DNA of 64,000 bases from a virus. Lineage: Duplodnaviria > Heunggongvirae > Uroviricota > Caudoviricetes. Location of the stretch: positions 42,259 through 106,258 of the IMG/VR virus record IMGVR_UViG_2576861193_000004. One strand, 5' to 3'. Shown in pieces: positions 6,295 through 64,000 of this stretch (its first letter is position 1; every line of letters starts with the position of its first letter). The notes beneath the pieces are model-generated. The model did not search any database, was not told the DNA's origin, and saw only the letters and a list, made by a program, of their open reading frames with translations. Position numbers and translations under genes: made by a program.

Positions 6295-6374
6295 GGCGTA
6301 GTGAGCAACTACACGACTGAAATAGAATCCGAGATCTATTGAGACGGTCCTTGTCCCGGATTCATCGCGGGAAA

Positions 6375-6692
6375 TTACTTTGCCCCTTCGCCAGCCGCTT
6401 TTTCGTTTTCTTCATCAATCACTTCCATAGCGAAGGTGAAGATCTGCTGGAGTTGCGGAACAGTCAGTTTTTCAAGAACTTCGTCAGGTACTGAAGGGAT
6501 AACCTTACGAACCAGATCTGCATAAGCTGTCACTTGCTCAACAGGAGACATGTTCTTGAGATCTTTGCCTTCCATCTGCTTGATGGAAACAAAGAGGCCG
6601 ACGGTCATTTCAACGATGGGATATTCTTTGCCACCAAATTTGATGCTTTTTTTCGGCGGCAGAATGGAGTCGAGATCGAGTAATTTGGTCAT
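6375..6692 (-). CDS. tail assembly chaperone (gpG-like)
   Basis: 105 aa with acidic C-terminus, located between major tail and tape measure genes. Confidence 0.55.
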   Translation of the reverse strand: MTKLLDLDSILPPKKSIKFGGKEYPIVEMTVGLFVSIKQMEGKDLKNMSPVEQVTAYADLVRKVIPSVPDEVLEKLTVPQLQQIFTFAMEVIDEENEKAAGEGAK

Positions 6693-6753
6693 GGTTTAAA
6701 TCCTTTTAAACTCATACAGAGGCCCATCCATGGGCCTCTTGGGTTATCACAAT

Positions 6754-7500
6754 TTAGCTTGCGGCAGTTACAGAGACGGCTTTGGTCGCCTTCTTGGCAC
6801 CGTCATTAGTTGTGAAGGTGATATTGGCTGAACCGACAGCTTTACCAGTTACCAGTCCGTTCTGATCTACGGTCGCTTTATCAGTCGCATCAGAGCTCCA
6901 CACGCCAGTCTTATTGGTTGCATCGGCCGGGGTGAAGGTTGCGCTCAATTGAACTTTAGTGCCCACTTTTACGGTCGGTGAAGACGGGGTCAGCGTGACG
7001 CTCTCAACCGGCTTTGGGAGGCTCATTTTCCCCAACACGCCAGCGTCGTCCGGGTAAGCGGAAAACTCAACTGAGAACACGCGAACGTCGTCAGACTGGT
7101 AGGTCATGGTGAAGTTACCCGCGGTTGCTGCTTTAGGGATGGTCAGAACATAATCCGTCGCATCCTGCGGGGTCAGCACCAACTCTTTCGCAACGTCGAT
7201 CAGGTTCACTCCCTGCGCAGACGTGATGGTTACGGTATCTTCGCCAGAACTCAGCGTGGAACCTGGCATCAGATCGACCATGTTTTTCAACACGGATTCA
7301 GCCAGCGGCGCAGTAATGGTGATGTTGCGGCCCTGGATCAGCTCGGAGATCGTGGTCTGGCCCAGCTGGTCTACGGTCACTTTCAGCGTTTCGGTTGCGA
7401 TTTCAACCTGAACACCACCTTTGGTGTAACCCAAATCCACACCACCAAACGACACCTTACAGGCACCAAGTTTGATGTTTTTTACATGGGTATTAGACAT
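6754..7500 (-). CDS. major tail protein with C-terminal Ig-like (Big_2-type) domain
   Basis: Start taken at MSNTHVKNIK (ATG 7498-7500); C-terminal VTLTPSSPTVKVGTKVQLSATF..TNKTGVWSS..ATVDQNGLVTG..GSANITF is an Ig-like repeat pattern; synteny. Confidence 0.7.
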   Translation of the reverse strand: MSNTHVKNIKLGACKVSFGGVDLGYTKGGVQVEIATETLKVTVDQLGQTTISELIQGRNITITAPLAESVLKNMVDLMPGSTLSSGEDTVTITSAQGVNLIDVAKELVLTPQDATDYVLTIPKAATAGNFTMTYQSDDVRVFSVEFSAYPDDAGVLGKMSLPKPVESVTLTPSSPTVKVGTKVQLSATFTPADATNKTGVWSSDATDKATVDQNGLVTGKAVGSANITFTTNDGAKKATKAVSVTAAS

Positions 7501-7546
7501 TGATGGAAAACTCCTTTTTCCGTTAATTCTACGCATTCATTGCGCT

Positions 7547-7570
7547 AATAGTAAGTATATACTTACCAAT
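7547..7570. promoter_or_regulatory. motif-2 palindrome (ATAGGTAA-n-TTACCTAT family)
   Basis: aatagtaagtatatacttaccaat upstream of major tail gene. Confidence 0.45.
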
Positions 7571-7574
7571 TGAG

Positions 7575-7931
7575 TTAATTCAATAAATAGCCAGCAAATT
7601 CAACAGGAATGCCTGCTTCTATTAATGCCCCATCATTTTTGGGATAAATGATTGGCATCGCCATCGGTCGTACAAGTCGAAAATACACACCACCAGATTC
7701 CGTTTCCTCTACTGGAAACATCTCAATGATTTTATTGGCTTTCTCAACCGTCGTAGTAATTGACGAACCACGCACAATGATTGTGAATGATTCGTGATAA
7801 AAGCCCTGTAGCTCATGATCGATGCTGATGCCGGTATTTGGATTAATAAGCAGGACGCCAGATTTCACATTGGCAGGCAAGTAGTGACAGAAAATGTCAG
7901 TCCCGACCGTGCCAATCTTTGCCTTCTGCAT
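7575..7931 (-). CDS. hypothetical tail/head-tail joining protein
   Basis: ORF in structural module; start set at internal ATG (MQKAKIG) just after stop of upstream gene at 7960. Confidence 0.35.
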   Translation of the reverse strand: MQKAKIGTVGTDIFCHYLPANVKSGVLLINPNTGISIDHELQGFYHESFTIIVRGSSITTTVEKANKIIEMFPVEETESGGVYFRLVRPMAMPIIYPKNDGALIEAGIPVEFAGYLLN

Positions 7932-7959
7932 CAAACTTGCAAACGCTTCAATAAACACA

Positions 7960-8433
7960 TTAACCTCTCGTAAATCCGGCTTTTCTGGCAGCCTCAAGAA
8001 TCGCTTCTGAGAACTGCTTCTCGCTAATTTCCACCGCTCTTTCCAGAAAGTGTGGCCCAACACGGGGTTTAACACCGGCAATTGGTGGGTTTGTCACGTT
8101 CTTCATTCGAGAAAGATAACCGAGTCGGTATTTACCCAGCTCCATGTACTTAGCATAGTCACCTACTTCTACACCCGGATGCCCCTGACGTGGTTTTGCT
8201 CCAGACACAGAAAGCTCAATGCGCAGCCCTGAATAACCTTCTTTAATCACCCTGGCAAAGATAGCTGTCTCCAGAGATCCGGTTTCCAGCGGGGCCATTG
8301 CACGGCTGAGGCGCTCAACCAAACGCGCCAGCTTTTCCATGTCCCGAATAAGATATCGCTTAAATGCTTTCTGGCTGTTATTGAGTCTATTCCCCGCACG
8401 TTTGAACTGATGCGCATCGTATTTCAGACCCAT
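7960..8433 (-). CDS. hypothetical head-tail connector / tail completion protein
   Basis: 157 aa ORF in head-tail module; position only. Confidence 0.4.
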   Translation of the reverse strand: MGLKYDAHQFKRAGNRLNNSQKAFKRYLIRDMEKLARLVERLSRAMAPLETGSLETAIFARVIKEGYSGLRIELSVSGAKPRQGHPGVEVGDYAKYMELGKYRLGYLSRMKNVTNPPIAGVKPRVGPHFLERAVEISEKQFSEAILEAARKAGFTRG

Positions 8434-8768
8434 ATATTCGCCCCTACTTCAAGATGCCCAGGTCTTCCTCGTAGCCCCCAGCGGCGATGAACACTGGACA
8501 CCTTTAATTTTTGACCTTCAAGGATCAGTACATCATCAAGTTGTACAGCCGCTTCTAAAGGGACAACTAACACAGCATCAAACAGCTCCAGACTCGCCTT
8601 ACCACGACTACCAGAGCTATCAGCACGAACTGACGATTTCTCATTACTCTGTTCGAACTTAACCACGCCGACATTCGTCTTCCTGACGAATTGTAATTGC
8701 GCCTCACCGTAAACGTTCTTTGCGCCAAAGCGGTAGATCGCAATTTCTGTTTGCCATGAAATATTCAT
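8424..8768 (-). CDS. hypothetical head-tail joining protein
   Basis: Start taken at MNISWQTEIAIY; roughly 115 aa, typical size and position for a head closure/adaptor protein. Confidence 0.35.
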   Translation of the reverse strand: MNISWQTEIAIYRFGAKNVYGEAQLQFVRKTNVGVVKFEQSNEKSSVRADSSGSRGKASLELFDAVLVVPLEAAVQLDDVLILEGQKLKVSSVHRRWGLRGRPGHLEVGANIWV

Positions 8769-8847
8769 GCTCTCTCCCTGTTGTTGTCGGTCGCTCTCAT
8801 TACTGGCCAAAAACCCTTTAGACCAAAAGTAAATAATGCGACTGGCG

Positions 8848-9681
8848 TTACGCACGGCGAACAATCATACGGTTGTTGATGTAACTGACCAGCAAGCGCC
8901 AGGTGCTACGAGCCACATGCACGTTTGCAGCTTTACCGGTACGGTACATGTTGGTTGTTTCACCGATGGACTCTGACAAAATGCCATCCTCTCGTGCTGC
9001 GGCTACATCATTGCCATTTGCGATCTCACACGCTTCGTTGACAACGGCAAGCATCAACGCTTCTTTGAAGTAGTCAGGGAACTCTTCAAACTTCTCCTGC
9101 GTCATCTTTTCCCAATCGACTAAATCATGCCGGTACGCTCCATCTGCTCCCCACGGAATATCATACACATTCAGCATATTTTGAGGGCGATCGTATCGGT
9201 CAAAGTCGATACGTAGAATTTTGCGGATTGAGAACGGTAAAGTTTTAATTCGTCTGGTAGCCTCAATGAGACGCTTGCGCATTAAGCCTTCACCATCCGA
9301 CAGCAAAGTGTCCCCATTCAGCATATCGATCGCCTGCATTTGAGCATCAGCGACAGTTGCAAACGACTGTTCTGGTATCGACAGTTCAAAACTATTCAGC
9401 AGAACATACATTTGCCGCTCTTCATGCGTCAGACCCGATGCAACAGCCTTCACAATGACGTACCGCAGATCTCGCTCTTTCTCAGAGAGCTGGTTATATT
9501 CAGCCGACACGACAACCGGAATCGACATTTGACCGTTGGTAATTTCTAGCGGCTCGCCATCAACGAGAATAGCCCCGGTGCTGTCCTTTACTGTGTAGGT
9601 GGCAGATTCGATATCCAGCACGTTGAAGGCAAATGAAAGAGAAACAGCTTCACCGCTACGATACGAGTCGATCTGCGCCAT
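8848..9681 (-). CDS. hypothetical structural protein
   Basis: 277 aa ORF between capsid-side and tail-side genes. Confidence 0.35.
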   Translation of the reverse strand: MAQIDSYRSGEAVSLSFAFNVLDIESATYTVKDSTGAILVDGEPLEITNGQMSIPVVVSAEYNQLSEKERDLRYVIVKAVASGLTHEERQMYVLLNSFELSIPEQSFATVADAQMQAIDMLNGDTLLSDGEGLMRKRLIEATRRIKTLPFSIRKILRIDFDRYDRPQNMLNVYDIPWGADGAYRHDLVDWEKMTQEKFEEFPDYFKEALMLAVVNEACEIANGNDVAAAREDGILSESIGETTNMYRTGKAANVHVARSTWRLLVSYINNRMIVRRA

Positions 9682-10115
9682 TACTCACCACCTTGTGCTT
9701 TCAGGATGCCGTCAATCATTTCGACAATTCCTTTCGCTTTGACACCAACCTGATTACCAATAACTCGTAGACCGGCAATACCTTCGTTGTCTGCAATTGA
9801 CTCCAGTTCTTCTCGTGTGAAAGTCTGGATCTGTTTGGCCGGTTCATCTGGTGTCCCACGTTTCATTGGCACAATGTCAGGCGCTGCTGGCTCGGTAATC
9901 AGGTCTGCTGTCAATTCACCACGATCACTGTATGCGGCAGACGGAGAAACATTTTTGCCCTCTACTGTTGACGCTCGCATTGAAGCACAAATCCTCTGCT
10001 GATCGATAAAAGGCAACTCCGCTACGGATACCCCGTTCTCGAACTGAACGCCACACAGCATTCCCGAATAACCGGAAAATTGCGGTTCTAATAAAACAAT
10101 TTTTGCTGGTTTCAT
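9681..10115 (-). CDS. hypothetical structural protein
   Basis: 144 aa ORF, end-to-start abutting neighbour at 9681. Confidence 0.3.
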   Translation of the reverse strand: MKPAKIVLLEPQFSGYSGMLCGVQFENGVSVAELPFIDQQRICASMRASTVEGKNVSPSAAYSDRGELTADLITEPAAPDIVPMKRGTPDEPAKQIQTFTREELESIADNEGIAGLRVIGNQVGVKAKGIVEMIDGILKAQGGE

Positions 10116-10159
10116 AACGCTTTCTCTCCACTTGGGCGGCGAAAGCCGCCCAATATCGG

Positions 10160-11080
10160 TTATTCCTGTGCGGCAGTAACTTCTACAGTTGCTGTCGCTT
10201 TGTGGCTACCATCTTGGGTAGTAACCTCGATTGTGGCAGTACCAGCCGCAACGCCAGTTACAACACCGGTTTCGCTATCCACCGTTGCAAACTCGGTATT
10301 TTTGGATTCCCAAGTAACGGTTTTATTTGTGGCTCCTGCCGGCTCGACATTTGCGGTCAGCTGAACAGTTTTGTTTGCCTCAACGGTTGTGCTATTTGGG
10401 TCGATTTCGACGGCGGTAACAGCCACAACAGGCGCAGTTACTTCCACCGTTGCAGTTGCCTTTTTGCTGCCATCTTGGGAAACGATCTCAATCGTCGCAG
10501 TGCCAACTTCTACACCAGTAACGTTCCCGCTCTGGTCTACCGTTGCCTTATCTTCATTTTTGGAAGACCAGGTAACAGCCTTATTCGTCGCATTTGACGG
10601 CTGAACATTCGCTTTCAGACTGACTGATTTCCCTTTCTCAACAGACGTTGATTCTGGCGTTACCGTTACGGATTGAACGGCTACCGGATTTACGGTGACT
10701 TCCACTGAAGCGGAAAGCTGGGTTTCCTGATCAGTTGCAGTAATTTTTACTTTGCCTGGTGCTACGCCAGTTACTAATCCAGTGCCGTTAACGGTTGCAA
10801 TTTGGTCATTTGCTGACTTCCAGGTGAATGAACTGGCACTCTTACCCATACTAATACCTGCACTAAGTTGAACAGTTTTCCCAACCAAAACTGACGGTGA
10901 AGCCGGGGTTATGTTTACGGATTGGGAGAGGGGAACCGCCTGCAAACAAGCAGATAGCTGACTTTGTTGCCGCTCGGTTAAAGGTTCATCGGAGATAGAA
11001 TTGGTAAATCCGGCACGGCACATATGCCCCGTAAAATCCGAAAATGCCTCTTCCGTAATCTTCATCTTTTGTTCTGGCAT
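10160..11080 (-). CDS. Ig-like (Big_2) triple-repeat protein, probable capsid decoration protein
   Basis: Three tandem copies of about 85 aa each (VTV.P..TVE..K.VQL.A.V.P..ATNK.VTW.S....ATVD..G.VTG...GTATI) immediately downstream of major capsid gene. Confidence 0.55.
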   Translation of the reverse strand: MPEQKMKITEEAFSDFTGHMCRAGFTNSISDEPLTERQQSQLSACLQAVPLSQSVNITPASPSVLVGKTVQLSAGISMGKSASSFTWKSANDQIATVNGTGLVTGVAPGKVKITATDQETQLSASVEVTVNPVAVQSVTVTPESTSVEKGKSVSLKANVQPSNATNKAVTWSSKNEDKATVDQSGNVTGVEVGTATIEIVSQDGSKKATATVEVTAPVVAVTAVEIDPNSTTVEANKTVQLTANVEPAGATNKTVTWESKNTEFATVDSETGVVTGVAAGTATIEVTTQDGSHKATATVEVTAAQE

Positions 11081-11153
11081 TTCTCGCTCCTACAAAAAGG
11101 GTGGGCGTATAGCCCACCCTTTAACATAGATAACTACTTATCTACTACACTGA

Positions 11154-12029
11154 TTAAATTTTTACATTGGTCAGTGCAGCGATAGCCTTATCGTGCTTAT
11201 TCGCCAGAGAGCAGTACCACTTCACACGGGTACGTACTGCGTCTTTGTTCTGTACAGTACCAATGTTTTCAACAACGATACCTGCGTTGTCGCCGCCATA
11301 CAGACCAGTAACGCCGTTCTCTTCTGACAGATGCAGGCAGTAGATGCTTGCTTTGCCAGAATCGGTCGGGATGAAGTCGTTGATGATGAACGGAACGCCG
11401 TTATGACACAGCATCGGACGACCGAAGTTCTCCATCATGATTTCAGACGGACCTACGTTTACTGTACGCAGCAGCGCACGGTAAGCACGCAGGTGCTCTG
11501 AACGCATCATGATGCAGTCAGCACCAAGATCTTTCACCGCATCGACCAGTTCGTCGAACATAGAGAAAGTCATAGATGCACCGGCGATATCGATCTTCTG
11601 ATCTGCGTGCATCAGGCGTGGAATGCCGTCAAACGCCTTGTTGTTGGAGCTGGAGTCACCCAAAATCAGGTTGCGACGGAACGCACGAGCCAGACCTTTA
11701 ACTTTCTGACGAACCTGAATAGCCAACTGGTTGTTGGTGTCGGCCATAGTGGTCGCCAGGAATTTATCAACGTCTACGTCACCAGCCAGAATACGCAGTT
11801 TCGCAACGCATTCTTCGAAGGTTGCTGCACCTTCAGGGATGGTGTCGTTAACGTCGATGAAGGTAGCTTCACTCAGCGTTTTTTCACGGTTGTACAGATA
11901 TGCCTTTGAATTAATTTTCATAAAAGGCAGGATGGCAAACAGGTCATCGCGATCGATGATAGTTTCGATCACACCCTGTTCAAGTTCGTTGTTAGACAGC
12001 TTTTCAGCTTCTTCACGCAGTAATGGCAT
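11154..12029 (-). CDS. major capsid protein (HK97 fold)
   Basis: 291 aa, position after scaffold and before decoration protein, composition typical of HK97-fold capsid proteins. Confidence 0.8.
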   Translation of the reverse strand: MPLLREEAEKLSNNELEQGVIETIIDRDDLFAILPFMKINSKAYLYNREKTLSEATFIDVNDTIPEGAATFEECVAKLRILAGDVDVDKFLATTMADTNNQLAIQVRQKVKGLARAFRRNLILGDSSSNNKAFDGIPRLMHADQKIDIAGASMTFSMFDELVDAVKDLGADCIMMRSEHLRAYRALLRTVNVGPSEIMMENFGRPMLCHNGVPFIINDFIPTDSGKASIYCLHLSEENGVTGLYGGDNAGIVVENIGTVQNKDAVRTRVKWYCSLANKHDKAIAALTNVKI

Positions 12030-12054
12030 CTATCAATTCCCTTTGATTTAGATG

Positions 12055-12942
12055 TTACTTAAGTCCAATTTTCCCCAGACCGGAGGCCAACTTATCCATA
12101 GTCGACTTGTTCTTCGGTTGGGATATTGTGTAGGTCGATTTGGAATGTGAGCCTACACCCTGCTTGGCTTCGCTACGCATCAATGCGTCAGCTTCCGGAT
12201 CTGCCCGCACAATGCGTTCAATCGCGGATTCAAACGGCAACGGCTTACCTTCACCGTCAACCAGAACAGCTCGTTCTTTGTGACCTGCCGGTTTGTCATA
12301 ACCCACTACGCTACCGTCTTCACCCACTTCAAAATGAGAACCGTAGATCACGCGGGCTTTTGCCGGGGTCATCAGAACTTTGTCACGTAGGAAGAGAGAG
12401 TTACTGAAGGAAGCGCCCACGGTCATCTCGACTAATTGAGATTTCAGTGATGCGTTTTCACTTTCCAGTGCTGCATAACGTTCGTCACGCTGTGCCAGCT
12501 CTGCCTGGTGTGCTTCGATCATCTGTTTTTTAACAGCATCGAACTCACCACGACGCTCCAGTTCAGCTTGCTCCGCCTCACGACGTGCGTTTTCTGCGGC
12601 CTGTTCAGCTTCTAAAAGCTGGCGAGCACGAGCCGGATCGATATCACCGTACTGAGCAAGCTGATCGGCCAATGTGCGCTCTTTCTCTTTGCGCTTCATG
12701 TTCTCCTTCAGCAGTTCAGCACCAGCTTTCTTGGTTTTACGAAGTTCGGCCAGTAACTCTTCCTGAGTCATGCCAGCGTATTCGTCATCGCCCTTCGGCT
12801 GCTCTTTTTGTTCACCCTGTTTGTCAGGATCTTGTGTACTCTGCTCATTATCAGCAGCTACACCGCCAGCGCCTCCACGCTCATGCGCTTCAGCAACATC
12901 CATCAGACCACGACGGGCCAAAAGCATTTGCCACAGATTCAT
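12055..12942 (-). CDS. head scaffolding protein
   Basis: 295 aa, highly charged helical repeats (AEQAAENARREAEQAELERR, ELAQRDERYAALESENASLKSQL) between portal and capsid genes. Confidence 0.55.
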   Translation of the reverse strand: MNLWQMLLARRGLMDVAEAHERGGAGGVAADNEQSTQDPDKQGEQKEQPKGDDEYAGMTQEELLAELRKTKKAGAELLKENMKRKEKERTLADQLAQYGDIDPARARQLLEAEQAAENARREAEQAELERRGEFDAVKKQMIEAHQAELAQRDERYAALESENASLKSQLVEMTVGASFSNSLFLRDKVLMTPAKARVIYGSHFEVGEDGSVVGYDKPAGHKERAVLVDGEGKPLPFESAIERIVRADPEADALMRSEAKQGVGSHSKSTYTISQPKNKSTMDKLASGLGKIGLK

Positions 12943-31597: not shown

Positions 31598-33631
31598 TTA
31601 CTTAACCTGGTGGCCTGGTTTAGCACCAGCATCCGGGCTTAACAGGAAGATATCTTTCCCGCCGGGGCCAGCAGCCATCACCATGCCTTCGGAGATACCG
31701 AAGCGCATTTTACGCGGAGCCAGGTTAGCCACCATAATGGTGTGACGACCAATCAGTGCCTGTGGGTCTGGATAAGCAGAACGGATGCCTGAGAAGACAT
31801 TACGCTTTTCACCACCGAGATCCAGTGTCAGACGCAGCAGTTTGTCAGAACCTTCGACAAACTCCGCGTTTTCAATCAGCGCCACACGCAGGTCAACTTT
31901 GGCGAAGTCGTCAAAGGTGATGGTTTCCTGAATCGGGTCGTCAGCCAGTGGGCCAGTTACCGGTGCAGCTGTGGCTTTCACTTCTTCTTTGGATGCTTCC
32001 ACCAGTGCTTCCACCTGTTTCATATCGATACGGTTATACAGTGCCTTGAACGGATTCACTTTATGGCCCAGCAGCGGTTGCTGGATACCATCCCAGGTCA
32101 GTTCTGTATTCAGGAATGCTTCTGCACGTTCAGTCAGTTTCGGCAGTACCGGTTTCAGGTACGTCATCAGCACGCGGAACAGGTTAATGCCCATAGAGCA
32201 AATCGCCTGCAGGTCGGCATCGCGGCCTTCCTGCTTCGCCACCACCCACGGAGCCTGTTCATCAACATAGCGGTTAGCCAGGTCAGCCAGTGACATGATT
32301 TCACGGATAGCTTTGCCAAATTCGCGGCTTTCCCACGCTTCACCAATCACTTCAGCGGCATCAGTGAAGGTTTTGTACAGTTGCGGGTCAGCCAGTTCGC
32401 TTGCCAGCACGCCGTCAAAACGTTTGTTGATAAAACCTGCATTACGGGAGGCCAGGTTAACCACTTTGTTCACGATATCGGCATTCACGCGCTGAACAAA
32501 ATCTTCCAGGTTGAGATCGATATCATCAATGCGCGAAGAGAGTTTCGCAGTGTAGTAGTAACGCAGGCTGTCGGCGTCAAAATGATTCAGCCAGGTGCTG
32601 GCTTTAATAAAGGTGCCGCGAGACTTGGACATCTTCGCGCCGTTCACCGTCACATAGCCGTGAACAAACAGGTTGGTCGGCTTGCGGAAGTTGCTGCCTT
32701 CCAGCATGGCAGGCCAGAACAGGCTGTGGAAGTAAACGATATCTTTACCGATGAAGTGGTACAGCTCGGCGGTGGAGTCTTTCTTCCAGTATTCGTCGAA
32801 GCTGGTAGTGTCGCCGCGTTTGTCGCACAGATTCTTGAAGGAACCCATGTAGCCAATCGGCGCGTCCAGCCAGACGTAGAAATATTTGCCCGGTGCGTTC
32901 GGAATTTCAAAACCGAAGTACGGCGCATCGCGGGAGATATCCCACTGTTGCAGGCCAGATTCAAACCACTCCTGCATTTTGTTTGCCACCTGCTCCTGCA
33001 ACGCACCGCTGCGGGTCCATGCCTGCAACATTTCGCTGAAAGAGGGCAGATCAAAGAAGAAGTGTTCAGAATCACGCATTACCGGCGTAGCGCCAGAAAC
33101 CACCGATTTCGGCTCGATCAATTCAGTCGGGCTATATGTTGCGCCGCAGACTTCACAGTTATCGCCGTATTGATCTGGCGCTTTACATTTAGGACAGGTG
33201 CCTTTTACAAAACGGTCCGGCAGGAACATGCCTTTTTCCGGGTCGTACAACTGAGAGATAGTGCGGTTTTTAATAAAACCGTTCTCTTTCAGGCGAGTAT
33301 AGATAAGCTCAGACAACTGACGGTTCTCTTCGCTGTGCGTCGAGTGATAGTTGTCATAGCTGATGTTAAAGCCTGCGAAATCAGTCTGGTGTTCCTGACT
33401 CATTTCGCCAATCATCTGCTCCGGTGTGATACCAAGCTGCTGTGCTTTCAGCATGATCGGCGTACCGTGGGCATCGTCGGCACAGATGAAATTAACCTCG
33501 TGGCCGCGCATTCGCTGGTAACGAACCCAGACATCAGCCTGGATGTGCTCCAGCATATGGCCGAGGTGGATTGAGCCGTTAGCGTACGGCAGCGCGCACG
33601 TCACCAGAATTTTCTTCGCGACTTGGGTCAT
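31598..33631 (-). CDS. metG: methionine--tRNA ligase
   Basis: Translation from [26 protein letters not shown] (HIGH motif) through KMSKS to C-terminal tRNA-binding domain ending [10 protein letters not shown]; 677 aa from ATG 33631; ORF track N-terminal extension rejected. Confidence 0.95.
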
Positions 33632-33788
33632 AGTAGGCATTACTTCTTTGTAGTGAAAAGGGGCTTGATAGTAACAAAATGGCCTTATGTCTGCCATGTG
33701 ATAACAGCATTTCTCATAAATGATTAAATGTCGTAGCTGGAGTACACTACAAGGCGACAATTGCGCAAATTAAAATAAAGGAGACGGG

Positions 33789-34889
33789 ATGAGCGAGTCC
33801 AAATCGCCGGATGCCCTGAGAGCAATGGTAGCCGGTACGCTGGCTAATTTTCAGCACCCAACCCTGAAACACAACCTGACTACGCTTAAAGCGTTACACC
33901 ATGTTGCGTTGATGGATGACACACTGCATGTCGAACTAATCATGCCTTTCGTGTGGAATAAGCCTTTTGAAGACCTGAAAGAGCAATGTAGTGGTGATCT
34001 GCTCCGTATCACTGGCGCAAAGGCTATTGACTGGAAGCTGTCGTACAACATTGCCACGCTTAAGCGCGTCAAAAACCAACCAGGCATTAATGGCGTTAAG
34101 AACATTATCGCCGTCAGCTCAGGCAAGGGCGGCGTGGGTAAATCCTCCACGGCGGTAAACCTGGCACTGGCGTTGGCTGCTGAAGGTGCGAAAGTTGGTA
34201 TTTTGGATGCCGATATCTATGGTCCATCAATTCCAACCATGCTGGGCGCGGAAAACCAACGTCCAACCTCACCTGACGGTACTCACATGGCACCTATCAT
34301 GTCTCATGGCCTGGCAACCAACTCTATTGGTTATCTGGTCACCGACGACAATGCAATGGTGTGGCGTGGACCGATGGCCAGCAAGGCGCTGATGCAGATG
34401 TTGCAGGAAACTCTATGGCCTGATCTGGACTATCTCGTTCTCGATATGCCGCCGGGCACTGGTGATATTCAGTTGACGCTGGCGCAGAACATTCCTGTAA
34501 CTGGTGCGGTTGTGGTAACTACGCCGCAAGACATCGCGCTGATCGATGCGAAGAAAGGCATTGTGATGTTCGAAAAAGTCGAAGTGCCGGTACTGGGTAT
34601 CGTCGAAAACATGAGTGTGCATATTTGCAGTAACTGCGGTCATCACGAGCCAATTTTTGGCACCGGTGGCGCACAGAAACTGGCCGAGAAATACAACACG
34701 CAGTTGTTAGGCCAAATGCCACTTCATATCTCTCTTCGTGAAGATCTGGATAACGGAACACCAACCGTTATTAGTCGTCCAGATAGCGAATTTACGGCTA
34801 TTTATCGTGACCTCGCAGATCGCGTTGCTGCCCAAATGTATTGGCAAGGTGAAGTAATACCTGGCGAAATCGCATTCCGCGCAGTGTGA
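33789..34889 (+). CDS. apbC: Fe-S cluster carrier ATPase ApbC/Mrp
   Basis: 366 aa; Walker A SGKGGVGKS, CxxC-type motif CSNCGH; divergent from metG with a 157-bp intergenic region as in E. coli. Confidence 0.9.
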   Translation: MSESKSPDALRAMVAGTLANFQHPTLKHNLTTLKALHHVALMDDTLHVELIMPFVWNKPFEDLKEQCSGDLLRITGAKAIDWKLSYNIATLKRVKNQPGINGVKNIIAVSSGKGGVGKSSTAVNLALALAAEGAKVGILDADIYGPSIPTMLGAENQRPTSPDGTHMAPIMSHGLATNSIGYLVTDDNAMVWRGPMASKALMQMLQETLWPDLDYLVLDMPPGTGDIQLTLAQNIPVTGAVVVTTPQDIALIDAKKGIVMFEKVEVPVLGIVENMSVHICSNCGHHEPIFGTGGAQKLAEKYNTQLLGQMPLHISLREDLDNGTPTVISRPDSEFTAIYRDLADRVAAQMYWQGEVIPGEIAFRAV

Positions 34890-34926: not shown

Positions 34927-35316
34927 CTACATCACGGGACAATCATCAAACTCGCCACTTCTTGCGTCGTTGATAATGTGAGTGATCACACCAAACACGG
35001 CATTGCTGCCCGTGCATCCATCGTCATCCTTTGGCAATGCTTCCTTCTTACCGGTTCTTAAATCCTCCAGATGCTGACGTGGGTACTTCCGGTATCTTTT
35101 TACGCGATATTCCCCATCCAGAGCGCATACAAGCAGAGAACCATCAACCGGGGTAAGTGAGGAATCGACCACCAGCAATGCACCCTGTAATATTCCCTCA
35201 CGATGATGACTATCAGCTGCCCTCATGAAGTAGGTCGCTGAAGGATGTCTAATTATCTGCTGATCAAGAGAAATACGGCTCTCAGCATAATCCGCCGCAG
35301 GAGAAGGGAAGCCCAT
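34927..35316 (-). CDS. umuD: UmuD'-like peptidase S24 protein (P1 HumD-like; encoded without the UmuD N-terminal arm)
   Basis: 129 aa starting MGFPSPAADY, which matches UmuD just after its autocleavage region; LexA box 20 bp upstream. Confidence 0.75.
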   Translation of the reverse strand: MGFPSPAADYAESRISLDQQIIRHPSATYFMRAADSHHREGILQGALLVVDSSLTPVDGSLLVCALDGEYRVKRYRKYPRQHLEDLRTGKKEALPKDDDGCTGSNAVFGVITHIINDARSGEFDDCPVM

Positions 35317-35334
35317 AGCGTTTTCACCTCAGAG

Positions 35335-35354
35335 TACTGTTTATCCATACAGTA
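35335..35354 (-). promoter_or_regulatory. LexA (SOS) box
   Basis: Gene-strand TACTGTATGGATAAACAGTA = CTGT-N8-ACAG consensus, followed by GAGG RBS and ATG of the umuD'-like gene. Confidence 0.7.
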
Positions 35355-35414
35355 TACATTAAAGATGCTTGAAGTGTGCAATAGCGCGATGCTTTGCGCT
35401 CGCCTGGTGGCGCG

Positions 35415-35678
35415 TTATTTTTTGGCTATATCTTCTTTCTGATATACCGGATCGTTTCCTTTTGGCAGCAGGAGGCTTAACTGCCGGTAGTGCCGTAGCC
35501 GTTCCATGAAATAGGTGCGCAGGTTCTCAGGTTGCTCACGGGCTACCTGTTCCGCTATGACGGGTATGTTCAATCGCTCTTTGTAGGCAACCCCCCTGGC
35601 AGCCAGGTCAACGTTAACTTTATTCCTTTCTTCCTGGCTTTTAGCTGCTATGTTCCATTCGTTCATATTAAATCCCAT
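35415..35678 (-). CDS. holE: DNA polymerase III theta subunit homolog (P1 Hot-like)
   Basis: [42 protein letters not shown] closely parallels E. coli theta [42 protein letters not shown]; true start may be the internal MNEWNIAAK. Confidence 0.65.
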
Positions 35679-36134
35679 CCAGAATAATTGAATAACGGCT
35701 ATTATTTAGTCGCCGCAATATCTTCAAAGTTTTTTTTCTCACCCCATTGCTTTTTGCGCACAGCTTATCTGGCTTGCGGTGCGCGAAATGTAAATTCGCC
35801 TTCAGAGTTATCCACAAAGTTATGCACTTGCAACGGGGCCATTTTCCTCATACCGTGTTTGCACACACAGGAAATGGATATTTTATTAATTGAATTTTAT
35901 TAAATAATAATGATAAGGAGAAAATTTGAGATGTAATCATGACATTAATAGATAGGGCCTGCATTACAGGCCCCAACTACATCAAGGAATTCACAGTTCC
36001 CTGATTTTTATACCGAAAACATGTGCCGTAAGTTCACGTTAACGACTTTCTTTCACCGAATCCAACTATATAGAGGTTGGGTTTCTACGTCAACGTGAGA
36101 GCACGCAGCTTTACATTAGACGAGGATTACCCTG

Positions 36135-36272
36135 ATGATTGTATTTTTTCAGTTTCTAAGTGCATTTTTAAATGCGCCTGTTCTTAGCCAAGTGCTGGCG
36201 ATTGTCTTCATCGTGGTTCTGATATGGTTTTTCAAGTCAGTGATAAACAGAGGCGTGCGCTGGCTTATTTAA
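36135..36272 (+). CDS. small hydrophobic peptide (45 aa), possible membrane toxin-like protein
   Basis: MIVFFQFLSAFLNAPVLSQVLAIVFIVVLIWFFKSVINRGVRWLI; RBS gagga 8 nt upstream; below ORF-track size cutoff. Confidence 0.3.
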   Translation: MIVFFQFLSAFLNAPVLSQVLAIVFIVVLIWFFKSVINRGVRWLI

Positions 36273-36804
36273 TGTCGCGATGAGATATTAATTCCCTTGC
36301 TGTTTAACCATTTTTTGTGTGTGCTGGTGAGCGTGTGAAGGCTCAATTTGTTGCCCACCAGTATTTACTATTTCTAAGCTCCACAGTGTCACTTCCGCAC
36401 AAACAACTTAGCGCGGAATCAGTATTCGGCCCAAGATGTAAAAAGCCAACCTGCGTTATGGTTCGCATTTCCAAATAGTGTTCTGAACGCCCTTGCCGGG
36501 CGCGAGATGTAGATTAGCGTTCACGCTATGCTGATATACGGCTTTAGACTTTCCATATTGCTGACAGGCTTTATCTGCGGTTTTTTGCAGGCTATCCAGC
36601 CCATACCAGCCATCAGACTGGATGCTTACCTTTTCACCGTCATTGTATTGCACCATCGCGCACCCAAACATGGCTATCATCGCACCGACAATACCACTTT
36701 TCCAAAAAGCTCTAATTAGGTCATTCGTTACCTAATGTCCGAACTGCTAAAGCATCCAAGTTGCTGTAGAATCACCGCCAATTACATAAGCCTGAAATAA
36801 GTGG

Positions 36805-38367
36805 ATGAAAATGACAAGTATTCAACAACGTGCAGAGCTTCATCGTCAAATCTGGCAAATTGCTAACGATGTCAGGGGTTCGGTCGATGGATGGGATTTT
36901 AAGCAATACGTTCTGGGCGCACTTTTCTACCGTTTTATCAGCGAAAATTTTTCCAGTTATATTGAAGCCGGTGATGACAGTATCTGTTATGCGAAACTGG
37001 ATGACAGCGTAATTACTGATGACATTAAAGACGATGCCATCAAAACTAAAGGCTACTTCATCTACCCCAGTCAGCTTTTCTGCAACGTAGCTGCGAAAGC
37101 AAATACTAATGACAGACTGAATGCAGATTTAAACAGCATCTTCGTTGCTATCGAAAGTTCTGCTTACGGTTATCCTTCAGAAGCAGACATCAAAGGTTTG
37201 TTTGCTGATTTCGATACCACCAGTAACCGCCTGGGTAACACCGTTAAAGATAAAAATGCCCGCCTGGCTGCGGTTCTGAAAGGGGTTGAAGGGTTAAAAC
37301 TTGGTGACTTCAACGAACATCAGATTGACCTGTTCGGTGATGCCTATGAGTTCCTGATTTCTAACTATGCGGCAAATGCCGGTAAGTCAGGCGGTGAGTT
37401 CTTTACACCGCAGCACGTCTCCAGGCTGATTGCACAACTGGCAATGCATGGCCAGACCCACGTTAACAAAATCTACGACCCGGCAGCGGGTTCCGGCTCA
37501 CTGTTGTTGCAGGCGAAAAAACAGTTTGATAACCACATCATCGAAGAAGGCTTTTTCGGTCAGGAAATCAACCATACGACCTATAACCTGGCGCGTATGA
37601 ACATGTTTTTGCACAATATCAACTACGACAAGTTTGATATCAAGCTGGGTAATACACTGACTGAGCCGCACTTCAGAGATGAAAAACCGTTTGACGCCAT
37701 CGTATCTAACCCACCGTATTCGGTGAAATGGATTGGCAGCGATGACCCGACGCTGATTAACGATGAGCGTTTTGCCCCGGCTGGCGTTCTGGCCCCCAAA
37801 TCCAAAGCTGACTTTGCGTTTGTATTACATGCACTGAACTATCTTTCTGCCAAAGGTCGTGCTGCGATTGTCTGCTTCCCGGGTATTTTTTACCGTGGCG
37901 GCGCGGAGCAGAAAATCCGTCAGTATCTGGTCGATAATAACTATGTCGAAACCGTGATTTCACTGGCACCGAACCTGTTCTTTGGCACCACCATTGCAGT
38001 AAACATTCTGGTGCTGTCTAAACATAAAACGGATACCAACGTTCAGTTTATTGACGCCAGCGAACTGTTCAAAAAAGAGACTAACAACAATATCCTGACC
38101 GATGCCCATATCGAACAGATTATGCAGGTATTTGCCAGCAAGGAAGATGTTGCTCATCTGGCGAAATCTGTCACGTTTGAGACCGTTGTCGCGAATGACT
38201 ATAACCTGTCGGTAAGCAGCTATGTGGAAGCGAAAGATACTCGCGAAATTATCGATATCGCTGAGTTGAATGCAGAACTGAAAACCACGGTCAGCAAAAT
38301 CGACCAGTTGCGTAAAGATATTGATGCGATTGTGGCTGAAATTGAAGGCTGCGAGGTGCAGAAATGA
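36805..38367 (+). CDS. hsdM: Type I restriction-modification methyltransferase subunit
   Basis: 520 aa; AdoMet motif [10 protein letters not shown], catalytic NPPY (VSNPPYS); start of next gene overlaps stop by 4 nt. Confidence 0.95.
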
Positions 38368-39599
38368 GCGAGTTGAGTTATCTGGAAAAATTGCTGGATG
38401 GGGTTGAGGTTGAGTGGTTGCCATTGGGGAAACTAGGTGAATTAGTTCGTGGAAATGGATTGCCTAAGTCTGATTTTACCGAATCTGGGGTTCCTGCCAT
38501 ACACTATGGTCAGATATATACTTTTTACGGATTATCTACTGAAACAACAAAGTCATTTGTTTCCCATGAAACGGCGAAGAAGCTTAAAAAGGTTAACTCT
38601 GGTGATGTTGTTATTACTAACACAAGCGAAAATTTTACTGATGTTGGTAAGGCGCTTGTTTATCTAGGTAAAGAGCAAGCTGTTACTGGTGGCCATGCAA
38701 CTATTTTCAAGCCAAATAGCACTATTATTGGGAAATACTTTGCCTATTTCACGCAAACGGATTCTTTTGCAAATGAGAAAAGGAAATACTCCAAGGGAAC
38801 TAAAGTAATTGATGTGTCTGCATCGGATATGGCGAAAATTATTATCCCTATCCCCTGTCCGGAAAATCCCAAAAAATCCCTTGCTATCCAGTCTGAAATC
38901 GTTCGGATTCTGGACAAATTTACTGCACTTACCGCTGAGCTTACCGCTGAGCTTACCATGCGTAAAAAACAGTACAACTACTATCGCGACCAATTGCTGA
39001 GTTTTAAAGAAGGTGAGGTTGAGTGGAAAACTTTGGGAGAAGTGGCTCAATACTCGAAAACAAGAATTAGTTTCGAACTACTTGATGAAAGGAATTATGT
39101 TGGCGTAGATAATCTGCTGCAAAACAGAGCAGGAAAATCATTATCTAATCATGTACCCACATCAGGTAAATTAACGGAGTTTATACCTAACGATATACTG
39201 ATTGGGAATATCCGCCCATATTTGAAAAAAATTTGGCAAGCAGATTGTATCGGTGGAACAAATGGCGATGTATTGGTTATTCGTTGCATAGATAGCTCAA
39301 TAAATACCAGATATCTATATCAGATTTTGGCAGATGACAAATTCTTTGAATACAACATGCAGCATGCTAAAGGAGCAAAAATGCCGCGTGGCAGTAAAGA
39401 GGATATAATGAAATACCCAATCCCTGTACCGCCACTCACCTTGCAAGCTCGCATTGTCGAAATACTCAACAAATTCGATACCCTGACAAACTCCATCACT
39501 GAAGGTCTTCCGCGTGAAATCGAATTACGCCAGAAACAATACGAATACTACCGTGATTTACTGTTCAGTTTCCCAAAACCTGAAACTGTCAGTAATTAA
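38364..39599 (+). CDS. hsdS: Type I restriction-modification specificity subunit
   Basis: 411 aa; conserved N-terminal, central ([42 protein letters not shown]) and C-terminal ([35 protein letters not shown]) regions separating two variable target-recognition domains. Confidence 0.9.
38931..38954 (+). repeat. tandem 12-bp repeat (ACCGCTGAGCTT x2) encoding TAEL-TAEL in the HsdS central spacer
   Basis: accgctgagctt accgctgagctt read directly in sequence. Confidence 0.8.
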
Positions 39600-39720
39600 T
39601 TGACCATTGCTACCGACCGGGCCACCTTAACACCCGGTCTGTATATAGACTATTTTTTACGCGCCGGAAGTCACTCTTAACGCCCTTCCGGCCCTTGCCA
39701 GGCGGCACAAAGGATGCGCT

Positions 39721-42700
39721 ATGACTCATCAAACACACACCATTGCTGAATCCAATAACTTTATCGTCCTTGATAAGTACATCAAAGCTGAGCAAACAAG
39801 CGACAGCTACCAGAGCGAATCGGACCTGGAACGTGAACTGATTCAGGACCTGCGGAATCAGGGTTATGAATTTATTTCCGTAAAATCACAGTCGGCAATG
39901 CTGTCCAATGTTCGGGAACAGCTTCAGAGCCTCAATGGTGTGATGTTTAATGACAGCGAGTGGCGGCGCTTCACGGAGCAGTATCTGGACAATCCCAGCG
40001 ATGGTATTCTGGATAAGACCCGTAAAATCCATATCGACTATATCTGCGACTTTATTTTTGACGACGGGCGTCTTGAGAACATCTATCTGATCGATAAAAA
40101 GAATCTCATGCGCAACAAAGTGCAGATTATCCAGCAGTTTGAACAGGCAGGTTCTCATGCTAACCGTTATGACGTCACGATCCTGGTTAATGGCTTGCCT
40201 CTGGTGCAAATCGAACTGAAAAAGCGCGGCGTGGCGATTCGTGAGGCTTTCAACCAGATACATCGTTACAGCAAAGAGAGTTTTAACAGCGAAAATTCCC
40301 TGTTTAAGTATCTGCAACTGTTTGTCATTTCTAACGGCACCGATACCCGTTATTTTGCCAACACCACAAAGCGCGATAAAAACAGTTTTGACTTCACCAT
40401 GAACTGGGCGAAATCAGACAACACGCTGATTAAAGACCTCAAAGACTTTACCGCTACCTTTTTCCAGAAACATACCCTGCTTAATGTTCTGGTGAACTAC
40501 AGCGTGTTTGACAGTAGTCAGACGCTACTGGTGATGCGACCGTACCAGATTGCAGCTACCGAACGGATCTTATGGAAAATCAACAGCTCCTATAAAGCGA
40601 AAAACTGGTCTAACCCCGAAAGCGGTGGCTTTATCTGGCACACCACTGGTTCCGGTAAAACACTGACCAGCTTTAAAGCCGCGCGTCTGGCAACTGAACT
40701 GGACTTTATTGATAAAGTCTTCTTCGTGGTCGACAGGAAAGACCTCGATTACCAGACCATGAAGGAATATCAGCGTTTTTCGCCAGACAGCGTCAACGGC
40801 TCGGAAAATACCGCAGGTCTTAAACGAAATCTGGATAAGGACGATAACAAAATTATCGTCACCACTATTCAGAAACTTAATAACCTGATGAAAGCAGAAA
40901 GCGACCTGCCTGTATACAATCAGCAAGTGGTGTTTATATTTGATGAATGCCACCGCAGCCAGTTTGGAGAAGCGCAGAAAAACCTGAAGAAGAAATTCAA
41001 ACGCTATTATCAGTTTGGTTTTACCGGCACCCCTATTTTCCCGGAAAATGCCTTAGGCTCAGAAACGACCGCCAGCGTATTTGGTCGTGAATTGCATTCG
41101 TATGTAATTACCGATGCGATTCGTGACGAAAAAGTGCTCAAATTCAAGGTGGACTACAACGATGTGCGGCCACAGTTTAAGTCTTTAGAGACAGAAACTG
41201 ACGAGAAAAAACTGAGTGCGGCTGAAAATCAGCAGGCGTTTCTTCATCCCATGCGTATTCAGGAAATCACGCAATATATCCTGAACAACTTCCGCCAGAA
41301 GACTCACCGTACTTACCCCGGCTCCAAAGGTTTTAATGCCATGCTGGCAGTAAGCAGCGTGGATGCCGCGAAAGCCTATTACGCGACGTTTAAACGGTTA
41401 CAAGAGGAAGCCGCTAATAAATCTGCTACCTATAAACCACTGCGTGTTGCGACAATCTTCTCCTTTGCCGCCAATGAAGAACAAAATGCCATTGGTGAAA
41501 TTTCCGATGAAACTTTTGATACCAGCGCAATGGACAGCAGTGCTAAAGAGTTTCTTGACGCTGCAATTCGTGAGTATAACAGCTATTTTAAAACTAACTT
41601 CAGCACCGACAGTAACGGTTTTCAGAACTACTATCGTGATTTAGCCCAACGGGTTAAAAATCAGGATATCGATCTGTTAATTGTCGTTGGGATGTTTTTA
41701 ACCGGCTTCGACGCTCCAACATTGAACACGCTATTCGTCGATAAAAACTTGCGTTTTCACGGCCTGATGCAGGCATTCTCCCGTACCAACCGCATTTATG
41801 ACGCTACTAAAACCTTCGGTAACATCGTCACTTTTCGGGATCTGGAACGCTCAACCATTGATGCCATAACGCTGTTTGGTGATAAAAATACTAAAAATGT
41901 GGTGTTAGAAAAGAGTTATGCAGAGTATATGGAAGGCTTTACTGATGCTGCTACAGGTGAAGCTAAACGCGGCTTTATGGCAGTAGTTTCAGAACTGGAA
42001 CAACGGTTCCCTGACCCTGCCAGTATTGAAAGTGAAAAAGAGAAGAAAGACTTCGTTAAACTGTTTGGCGAATACCTGCGTGCCGAGAACATCCTGCAAA
42101 ACTATGATGAATTTGCCACGCTGAAAGCCCTGCAACAAATCGATCTTAGCGATCCTGTTGCGGTAGAAAAATTCAAAGAAGAACATTATGTGGATGATGA
42201 AAAGTTCGCTGAATTGCAAACGATTCGTCTCCCTGCTGAACGCAAGATTCAGGATTATCGTTCTGCCTATAACGATATTCGTGACTGGCAGCGCCGCGAG
42301 AAAGAAGCTGATAAAAAAGAAAAATCAACCACTGACTGGGATGACGTGGTTTTTGAGGTCGATTTGCTGAAGTCTCAGGAAATAAACCTGGATTATATCC
42401 TTGGACTGATTTTCGAACACAACAGACAAAATAAAGGCAAGGGCGAAATGATCGAAGAGGTCAAACGCTTAATTCGTTCAAGCCTGGGGAACCGGGCGAA
42501 AGAGGGCCTGGTGGTCGATTTTATTCAGCAAACGAACCTGGATGATTTACCAGACAAAGCCAGCATCATTGACGCGTTCTTTACCTTTGCTCAACACGAA
42601 CAGCTACGTGAAGCAGAAGCGTTGATTAAAGAAGAAAATCTCAATGAAGAGGCGGCGAAACGCTATATTCGCACGTCTTTAAAACGCGAATACGCCACCG

Positions 42701-42837
42701 AAAATGGCACAGAATTAAACGAGACATTACCAAAACTTAGTCCGTTAAACCCGCAATATAAAACGAAAAAACAGACGGTTTTCCAGAAAATCGTCACGTT
42801 TATTGAAAAGTTCAAAGGAGTAGGTGGGCAGATATAG
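39721..42837 (+). CDS. hsdR: Type I restriction enzyme R subunit
   Basis: 1038 aa; helicase motifs [12 protein letters not shown] ([11 protein letters not shown]), endonuclease-type N-terminal region; 120-bp gap after hsdS with no intervening gene. Confidence 0.95.
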
Positions 42838-61460: not shown

Positions 61461-61677
61461 TTATTCACAGGCCCGATCCAATATTTAGATCCCCAGAGAG
61501 ATCCTACAGAAGATCAAAAGAGATCCCAGATCGTCTCCAGCGCTTGCGGTTACTGGCTTGAGAAGGGGTTACTATCCACTATAGGGAGCAAAATAACCAC
61601 TGTAGAGAGCATAATAACCGCTATGAAGAGCAAAACAACCTCTCTGGAGAGTAGTCGGTATCCACTGTAGTGAGTAG
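61461..61677 (+). promoter_or_regulatory. origin-like region copy 1: DnaA box, GATC cluster, iterons
   Basis: TTATTCACA (61461-61469); six GATC within about 70 bp (61475-61542); then 4-5 iterons with core CCACTRTAGRGAG (61571-61677). Confidence 0.6.
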
Positions 61678-61844: not shown

Positions 61845-62075
61845 GGCCCGATCCAGTAATTCAGATCCCTGTTAGAACCAAAGAGAACCACAAAGACCCA
61901 AAGAGATCCCCGGCCCCTGCAAACCGTTGTGCCACATGGCTTTAGAGGTTATCGATATCCACTATAGTGAGAATAACAACCACTATAGAGAGTAAATCAA
62001 CCACTATGGAGAGTAGAAAAACCGCTGTAGGCGGTAGGATAACCACTGTGATGGGTGCTACTATCCACTGTAATC
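61845..62075 (+). promoter_or_regulatory. origin-like region copy 2: DnaA box, GATC sites, iterons upstream of repA
   Basis: TTATACACA (61845-61853) followed by cacaggcccgatccagtaattcagatccc (near-copy of 61466-61492), then 5 iterons (61955-62075). Confidence 0.6.
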
Positions 62076-62117: not shown

Positions 62118-63173
62118 ATGAGCGTAAACGACAATAAAAACATTGCGATAAGCGAAGCATTTTCCGAAACAGACAAAAAGACCGGCGAAGTTGTTACGTT
62201 AGTTCCTAACACCAACAACACAGTTCAGCCTGTTGCTCTGATGCGTCTTGGTCTCTTCGTTCCGACGCTGAAATCGACATCCAGGGGTAGAAAGGGGCAA
62301 ATGGTCTCTATGGACGCCTCCGCTGAACTCAAACAGCTGTCTCTGGCCAAAGCCGAAGGGTACGAGGATATAAGGATTGCTGGTCTTCGTCTTGATATGG
62401 ATAACGATTTCAAAACATGGGTGGGCATCATCCACGCGTTCGCCAAGCACAAGGTTGTTGGTGACACCGTCACGTTGCCGTTCGTCGAGTTCGTCAGACT
62501 TTGTGGCATACCAACAGCCAGATCGTCCGCGAAGTTACGTAAGCGCCTGGACAGCTCTCTAAGTCGTATCGCCACAAACACCATCTCATTCCGCAGCAAA
62601 GGCTCTGAAGAGTATTACGTTACGCACCTTGTGCAGACGGCAAAGTACAGTACCAAGAATGACACGGTCGAACTGAAGGCCGATCCTAAGATTTTCGAAC
62701 TTTACCAGTTCGACAAAAAGGTGCTTTTGCAACTTCGGGCCATCAACGAACTCTCCAGAAAGGAATCCGCGCAGGCGCTCTACACCTTCATTGAAAGTTT
62801 GCCACCAGACCCGGCGCCAATCTCATTGGCTCGCTTACGCGCCAGACTTAACTTAACCAGCCGTACCATTACCCAGAATGCGACAGTCAGGAAGGCGATG
62901 GAGCAACTGCGAGAGATCGGCTATCTCGATTACACTGAAGTGAAACGCGGCAGCTCGGTCTACTTCGTCATCCACTATAGACGGCCGAAGTTACGTTCGG
63001 CACTGCCGCCATCTATGGCCACGCCTGAAGATCCAGAAGATATCTTGTCAGGTGATGATCCGGAGGACATTATCGATGTTGCTCCTGAAGAAAAAGACGG
63101 GGAAATGGTCATGTTGAGCAAGGAAGAACTGGCGATTCTCGAAGAGCTGCGCAAGGCAAAGGCTCGCAAATAG
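62118..63173 (+). CDS. repA: iteron-binding plasmid replication initiator RepA (P1/RepFIB type)
   Basis: 351 aa; [62 protein letters not shown]; flanked by iteron arrays. Confidence 0.75.
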
Positions 63174-63790: not shown

Positions 63791-64000
63791 TTTTCTTCAG
63801 CAGACCCCAGAGTGTCCCGGCCTTCGTTGCGAGCTTACCTGTTTCCGGATCGTACATGCGCCATTCACGTCGCTGGTGGACAATATACCCATCTTCACGT
63901 TCCAGTCGTTCCAGTACGCCGGACTGCTTGAACCCTTTGGCACGCCAGGTGATGCTGCCAACTTACTGATTTAGTGTATGATGGTGTTTTTGAGGTGCTC
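63783..64000 (-). CDS. hypothetical protein, C-terminal part only (gene starts beyond window end)
   Basis: Minus-strand frame ending ...WRAKGFKQSGVLERLEREDGYIVHQRREWRMYDPETGKLATKAGTLWGLLKKIH with stop at 63783-63785. Confidence 0.3.

Follow-up and report, generated by a model that had tools for sequence, protein, structure and literature searches.

A type IC hsdS gene with two TAEL repeat units on an SSU5-like phage-plasmid, and natural copy-number variants of its allele

The TAEL repeat mechanism of type IC restriction-modification systems has been textbook knowledge since 1989. The families are defined by cross-hybridisation, complementation and sequence similarity. In the type IC family hsdM and hsdS are co-transcribed, and hsdR is expressed from its own promoter. 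The central region of the type IC specificity subunit, HsdS, contains a tetrapeptide repeat, which can be TAEL, LEAT, SEAL or TSEL (PMC10030836; PMC3874165). Two TAEL units, as in EcoR124I, specify GAA N6 RTCG and three, as in EcoR124II, specify GAA N7 RTCG, a change attributed to unequal crossing-over at the 12-bp repeat (Loenen et al. review, PMC3874165). EcoDXXI and EcoPrrI each have three repeats, and hybrids of EcoR124I and EcoDXXI with altered repeat number behaved as predicted; the rule that two or three TAEL units set the spacer, which a preliminary description of the present locus had invoked, is therefore established for EcoR124I/II and for these hybrids (PMC3874165). Furthermore, primers for deleting one repeat of EcoR124II show the same 12-bp unit, ACCGCTGAGCTT, as the locus described below (PMC10644984). 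In NgoAV of N. gonorrhoeae the number of LEAT repeats differs between isolates and tracks N6/N7 methylation motifs (PMC6789123).

The locus that we consider here lies in a 64,000-nucleotide stretch of viral DNA, which is referred to throughout as the window. Its features are as follows.

36706 to 42837, + strand: mobile hsdMSR cassette, delimited by similarity to copies in P1-like phage-plasmids
36805 to 38367, + strand: hsdM, N6-adenine methyltransferase subunit of 520 aa (Pfam N6_Mtase, HsdM_N)
38364 to 39599, + strand: hsdS, specificity subunit of 411 aa (Pfam Methylase_S, twice), overlapping the end of hsdM by 4 nt
38430 to 38843, + strand: first target-recognition domain (TRD1), HsdS residues ~23-160, by alignment to 7bst_A; unrelated to the GAA-recognising TRD of EcoR124I
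38844 to 39041, + strand: central conserved region, residues ~161-226, with the TAEL helix; three differences from EcoR124
38928 to 38957, + strand: full periodic tract, 2.5 units, with 18 nt of self-homology at offset 12
38931 to 38954, + strand: two copies of ACCGCTGAGCTT, coding for TAEL-TAEL at HsdS residues 190-197
39042 to 39419, + strand: second target-recognition domain (TRD2), residues ~227-352; unrelated, in the 7bst_A alignment, to the RTCG-recognising TRD of EcoR124I
39462 to 39542, + strand: distal (C-terminal) partner helix, 14 residues between conserved flanks
39721 to 42837, + strand: hsdR, translocase/endonuclease subunit of 1038 aa (HSDR_N, SWI2_SNF2, T1R_D3-like, EcoR124_C)

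The gene order is thus hsdM-hsdS-hsdR, as in EcoR124I/II of plasmid R124, with hsdS and hsdR separated by 121 nt. HsdM is identical to the EcoR124 M protein (7bst_D) at 517 of 520 residues (99.4%), and HsdR matches EcoR124 HsdR (2w00) over its full length (1038/1038 residues, 2253 bits), residues 1-519 being ~97.5% identical. HsdS matches the EcoR124 S subunit 7bst_A at 2.6e-77 and has the expected conserved N-terminal, central and C-terminal regions flanking two variable TRDs; it is near-identical to EcoR124 S in residues 1-22, ~161-226 and ~353-411, whereas the TRDs are divergent. The tandem tetrapeptide repeat of the central conserved region that marks type IC subunits is also present. Taken together, the EcoR124-like M and R subunits, the EcoR124-like HsdS scaffold and the shared 12-bp unit identify the cassette, as judged from its sequence, as an intact hsdM-hsdS-hsdR set of the EcoR124 (type IC) family with a different, uncharacterised TRD pair. 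This bears out the family placement and the hsdS label given in the preliminary description, the former through the HsdM and HsdR matches, the conserved HsdS regions and the EcoR124_C domain, and the latter through the two Methylase_S domains. Moreover, the near-identity of M and R makes it likely that the subunits would complement those of EcoR124I.

The two TRDs have no sequence relation to those of EcoR124I, and the half-sites should therefore be neither GAA nor RTCG; among the searches made, neither domain showed a relation to any solved or named enzyme. TRD1 is also present in E. coli chromosomal alleles, TRD2 recurs in many plasmid alleles, there in combination with a different TRD1 and with three repeat copies, and the central conserved region has matches in 1346 E. 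coli records. In the gap between hsdS and hsdR there is a weak promoter-like site at 39627-39656 (consensus match 9/12), although such sites are no commoner than in shuffled sequence, and promoter and terminator scans gave nothing above the shuffled background. An antisense open reading frame at 38664-39050 (128 aa, TTG start) lies wholly inside hsdS and was treated as spurious.

Within hsdS, positions 38931-38954 hold two perfect tandem copies of the unit on the + strand, the same number as in EcoR124I, and the periodicity is extended by an extra CTT upstream and ACC downstream. Tandem Repeats Finder reports the resulting 30-nt tract with period 12, 2.5 copies, 100% matches, no indels and a score of 60. 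The repeat is in frame, since position 38931 is the first base of hsdS codon 190. The preliminary description, which had reported a 12-bp tandem repeat coding for TAEL-TAEL in the "central spacer" of hsdS, was therefore correct in both its position and its reading, the spacer being the HsdS central conserved region. The tract is the sole perfect tandem repeat of period >7 in the window, and the 12-mer shows no enrichment elsewhere in it. That the tract is a chance repeat of no significance is next to inconceivable, as chance would give a perfect period-12 tract of 30 nt or more only ~8e-7 times per window (none was seen in 300 shuffles of it) and the repeat is conserved in frame across thousands of homologues; on these grounds this explanation was ruled out.

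The locus differs from its described relatives in several respects. EcoR124 is carried by an IncFIV conjugative plasmid, and the present system by an SSU5-like phage-plasmid. It shares family and repeat with EcoDXXI and EcoPrrI but has two copies rather than three, and it has no prrC anticodon nuclease gene in the gap between hsdS and hsdR. As in NgoAV, a tetrapeptide repeat of the central region varies naturally in number, but the repeat sequence there is different (LEAT/EATL) and NgoAV specificity is also set by a downstream frameshift that truncates HsdS, which is absent from the full 411-aa reading frame of the window. The locus resembles the simple-sequence-repeat phase-variable hsdS and mod loci, where a change in repeat number alters methylation and slipped-strand mispairing is presumed (PMC7383803). 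However, classical contingency loci consist of long tracts of 1-7-nt units that switch at high frequency, mostly on/off by frameshift, whereas here 2.5 units of 12 nt remain in frame. The pneumococcal shufflons SpnIII/ivr and SpnIV/tvr likewise diversify type I specificity within a lineage (PMC6265443), but they do so by swapping TRDs among partial hsdS genes through site-specific or homologous recombination, and the present cassette has one hsdS, no recombinase and no silent copies.

Between the ILxKFxxL and RxKQY flanks the central helix is 10 residues long and its C-terminal partner helix 14, so that a third TAEL unit would equalise the two helices. This arithmetic accords with a review in which three TAEL repeats are called the "optimum" number (PMC3874165).

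The element that carries the cassette resembles Salmonella phage SSU5 (94% identity from ~42892 onward) and, in its upstream part, phage Cyrano and related phages (97% identity); E. coli plasmids of ~110 kb are 97-98% identical to it over 93% of positions 20000-44900. The element encodes a large terminase subunit and homologues of metG and mrp, together with a Rep3-type initiator that has flanking 21-bp iterons, and on this basis the window is classed as an SSU5-like phage-plasmid. The metG gene is full-length (methionyl-tRNA synthetase) and lies with the mrp/apbC-like gene (ParA/NUBPL) at 31598-34889; both are annotated also in related phages such as Cyrano and PhiR41_1 and in the ~110-kb E. 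coli plasmids. A 21-bp repeat, CCACTATAGAGAGCAAAATAA, forms two arrays at 61576-61651 and 61959-62030 (~3.5 copies each, 78% matches), just upstream of the Rep3-type initiator gene (ORF 62118-63173), and these are probably plasmid-replication iterons.

The cassette itself is 98.6% identical over 6132 nt to copies in P1-like phage-plasmid contigs (L004, L006 and L009) that carry c1, pacAB, lpa and phd/doc and whose HsdS protein is identical to that of the window, and 95.7% identical to copies in E. coli chromosomal islands adjoining tRNA-Leu (tRNA-Leu/ahr). In the P1/P7-like phage-plasmid contigs L004-L011 it lies between phd/doc and a HAD_PNKP gene, at 6343-12474. The occurrence of copies on P1/P7-like, SSU5-like and chromosomal loci shows that the cassette moves between two unrelated phage-plasmid families and chromosomes. 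Just upstream of it in the window, at 34927-35678 on the - strand, are encoded a 129-aa S24 peptidase (UmuD/HumD-like) and an 87-aa homologue of DNA polymerase III theta (like P1 hot). The ~1.1 kb between the theta homologue and hsdM (35680-36800) holds no open reading frame >74 aa; annotations of phage Cyrano and of the E. coli chromosomal islands place a DUF4942 gene near the equivalent position. The segment may be what a deletion has left behind, or it may be regulatory or non-coding.

The same TRD pair, at 98% amino acid identity, is found in six complete E. coli chromosomes, of which four have two repeat copies and two have three. Strain S56 (two copies) and CFSAN061769 (three copies) differ in hsdS over 1236 nt solely by the 12-bp unit, and there is one difference between S56 and the three-copy genomes in the 6 kb downstream of hsdS. 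The two three-copy genomes, CFSAN061769 and Sx181-0-1, have mutually identical hsdS genes, one difference in ~6 kb downstream, and intact M, S and R genes. A one-copy relative also exists (homologue P0009, 96% identical). The presence of two and three copies in the same allele indicates that gain or loss of a unit does occur in this lineage. Hence, of the idea in the preliminary description that the repeat may switch specificity, which follows the textbook mechanism, the copy gain and loss proved real, as seen in the S56/CFSAN061769 pair and P0009; the label of contingency site attached to it did not hold up, for reasons given below. In S56 the hsdM gene of the two-copy allele is split by IS1 (L002, 3671-6004), and the system of this strain is probably inactive. 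The last 53 nt of the window (63948-64000) are 100% identical to L002 4905-4957 in S56, at or adjoining the end of the IS1 that disrupts hsdM, and an IS1 probably starts at the edge of the window.

Copy-number change is not confined to this allele. When 165 full-length homologues were pooled and clustered with the repeat masked, more than one copy number was found in 9 of the 23 TRD-pair groups with at least two members, counts that are biased in that the homologue list was ranked against a two-copy query. Seven variants differ from a two-copy allele solely within the tract, one of these pairs being identical at every other nucleotide. A search of 5426 complete E. coli genomes found the central region in 1256, and an evenly spaced sample gave 58 informative E. 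coli records (13 of them verified by sequence) with ~32 two-copy, 23 three-copy, two four-copy arrays and a single one-copy array; three copies are thus present in ~40% of the sampled E. coli type IC genes. Of the hsdS genes in phage contigs, 26 are two-copy and 15 three-copy. Arrays of 1, 2, 3, 4 and 5 copies exist in nature, the longest being the five TAEL units of a Thiothrix MAG (L146, 3677-3736). The four units of E. coli plasmid pANT_2 (L013) sit in an intact hsdS of 388 aa; two other sampled loci have a truncated hsdS, L012 (ISEc45, with a four-copy array) and L064 (IS1B).

Some three-unit arrays carry one substitution in the middle unit, giving TAEP, TAAL or TDEL and also TAKL, TAEF or TAEI (homologues P0036, P0069 and P0113, and also P0016, P0090 and P0094), and three such variants have no other amino acid difference from a two-copy allele. 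Perfect three-copy versions of the alleles behind these variants are not on record. An interrupted array as the normal three-unit state was considered and rejected, as none of the nine three-unit arrays sampled from complete E. coli genomes is imperfect in its protein sequence. The substituted arrays could be "locked" arrays, error-prone duplication products, or a quirk of sequencing or sampling.

The comparison of units across species bears on how the arrays are maintained. A codon-degenerate scan of species-representative genomes yielded 71 HsdS arrays from 71 species (48 two-copy, 22 three-copy and one five-copy), spanning Proteobacteria, Firmicutes, Bacteroidota, Spirochaetes, Chloroflexota and one Methanomassiliicoccaceae archaeon. 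The synonymous codons of the unit differ between species, with 23 distinct units and a mean of 1.93 differences, and units from different species are identical in only 11% of cases, whereas neighbouring units of one gene agree fully in 83 of 96 pairs (86%), with a mean of 0.18 differences; none of 10,000 random pairings reached this identity. Such agreement within genes indicates continual local duplication and loss, or gene conversion, of which it would be the signature. Species-specific codon bias could contribute, but an identity of 86% across the four or five synonymous positions is more than it could plausibly produce by itself. Arrays of ACAGCAGAGCTT units also occur in E. coli, and strain 44 (L063) has a hybrid array in which two ACAGCAGAGCT(T/G) units precede one ACCGCTGAGCTT unit, a pattern suggestive of recombination inside the array; both observations point in the same direction as the turnover evidence. 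The ACAGCAGAGCT(T/G) unit is a second type that circulates in E. coli (L014, L062 and L066).

As a proxy for rate, minimum spanning trees were built for 82 unique homologue sequences in 17 allele groups, and these contained seven copy-number changes against 165 amino acid substitutions. On this count a change in the tract would be about as frequent as mutation across a few codons. If the changes are roughly neutral and the mutation rate is the one usual for E. coli, we infer a rate of the order of 1e-8 per generation. In a very large protein collection searched by exact match, the two-copy protein of the window occurs in 16 contigs and that of the S56 type in 396, and one-, three- and four-copy versions of either are not on record there; nor are perfect three-copy versions of ten other common two-copy alleles. 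Absence from this collection is weak evidence, since it also lacks a three-copy protein that exists in two RefSeq genomes. It may be that new specificities are counter-selected by self-restriction and hence under-sampled, and heterogeneity within populations could be higher than comparative data suggest. The accessible literature gave no figure for the switching frequency of R124/R124-3.

These data allow the possible accounts of the tract to be weighed. Were it a true contingency locus, it would switch reversibly between one, two and three copies at ~1e-5 to 1e-2 per generation, with the resulting mixture of specificities serving as bet-hedging. The polymorphism between very close relatives that such a locus should display is indeed seen, in S56/CFSAN061769 and in six further pairs, as copy number varies within one allele with no other nucleotide change; the variation recurs across alleles, the units are homogenised across phyla, and the EcoR124/EcoR124-3 pair was reportedly first found as spontaneous laboratory variants. 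Nevertheless, the tract is neither long enough nor of a type to raise the mutation rate by orders of magnitude, with only 2.5 units of a 12-mer and seven copy changes against 165 substitutions. Variant forms are rare relative to parental ones, as the exact-match searches for the 396 and 16 contigs and for the ten other common alleles illustrate, and the two three-copy E. coli genomes are so nearly identical at the locus that a single event would suffice for both. Moreover, copy changes are always in frame, so that they alter specificity and do not act as an on/off switch. The evidence therefore points against a rapidly switching or classical contingency site, as which the tract had been described at the outset, and we consider that account very improbable. 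At the opposite extreme, the two TAEL units could be a fixed part of the coiled coil, a static linker, and changes in copy number would then be of no biological consequence to the phage-plasmid. Two copies are present in each of the 24 contigs read for the exact protein of the window, although this is so by construction; no variant of that protein is on record, and the differences from close relatives of the window's backbone lie in the TRDs and are not limited to copy number. Against this, there are 98%-identical alleles with three copies and a 96%-identical allele with one, and the effect of copy number was demonstrated in this very scaffold, which is conserved here; we find a static linker distinctly unlikely.

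Alternatively, the copy differences might stem mainly from other type IC hsdS alleles, through homologous recombination or gene conversion in the conserved central region, the exchange by which TRDs are also reshuffled, slippage in situ being minor. Reassortment of TRDs is rampant: many plasmids, and phage phi456, combine the TRD2 of the window with other TRD1s and three copies, homologues P0058-P0075 pair the window's TRD1 with other TRD2s, some E. coli genomes hold up to six type IC central regions, and the hybrid array of L063 combines two unit types. However, the seven variant pairs that are identical outside the tract would each need a donor with identical flanks, for which a local event is simpler, and the homogeneity of the units in 71 species, with codons particular to each, points to duplication and loss at the locus itself. 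Nor are the two routes exclusive, as unequal crossing-over is itself recombination. A leading role for exchange between alleles thus seems unlikely, though it is to be taken more seriously than a fixed linker. We consider it probable, on all of the above, that the tract is the canonical TAEL repeat of a type IC HsdS, here on a phage-plasmid, which acts as a molecular ruler and undergoes recurrent copy change at a low rate.

In the mechanism that we propose, the TAEL helix of the central coiled coil would serve as a ruler between TRD1 and TRD2. For an enzyme with two TAEL units the predicted target is a bipartite site with EcoR124I-type spacing, which would be N6 if the half-sites are of 3 + 4 bp, and each unit gained or lost would shift the gap by 1 bp, if the N6/N7 rule extends, as we infer, to this TRD pair. 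Slippage at replication, or unequal crossing-over between copies, may shift the pairing of the 30-nt periodic tract by one register of 12 nt, which would always leave the reading frame intact. Recurrence of these events on evolutionary time scales would keep the units identical by concerted evolution, at a low rate comparable to that of point substitution in a handful of codons and unlike the high frequency of a classical contingency locus.

The present locus is, then, a new allele of a known repeat system on a phage-plasmid, and as such ordinary biology; the mechanism is long established and little is at stake for the field. A more speculative reading, which we think unlikely, is that the TAEL array is a selectively maintained, low-frequency "specificity vernier", present from Enterobacteria to Firmicutes, Spirochaetes and an archaeon, which phage-plasmids exploit together with the swapping of TRDs. 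If this were true, continual duplication and loss would keep the units perfectly identical, the SSU5-like and P1-like phage-plasmids that share the cassette would use it to diversify their restriction specificity, and the three-unit alleles with a substituted middle unit (TAEP, TAAL, TDEL and others) would be locked forms that no longer slip. For the phage-plasmid of the window, the prediction is of an active-looking EcoR124-type system with an N6-type gap, which may drift to a gap one base longer or shorter. For those concerned with the evolution of restriction-modification systems and with phage-plasmid host range, the results on copy arrays and on the homogenisation of units, and the sharing of one cassette by P1-like and SSU5-like phage-plasmids and chromosomal islands, may be of interest, although none of them is surprising.
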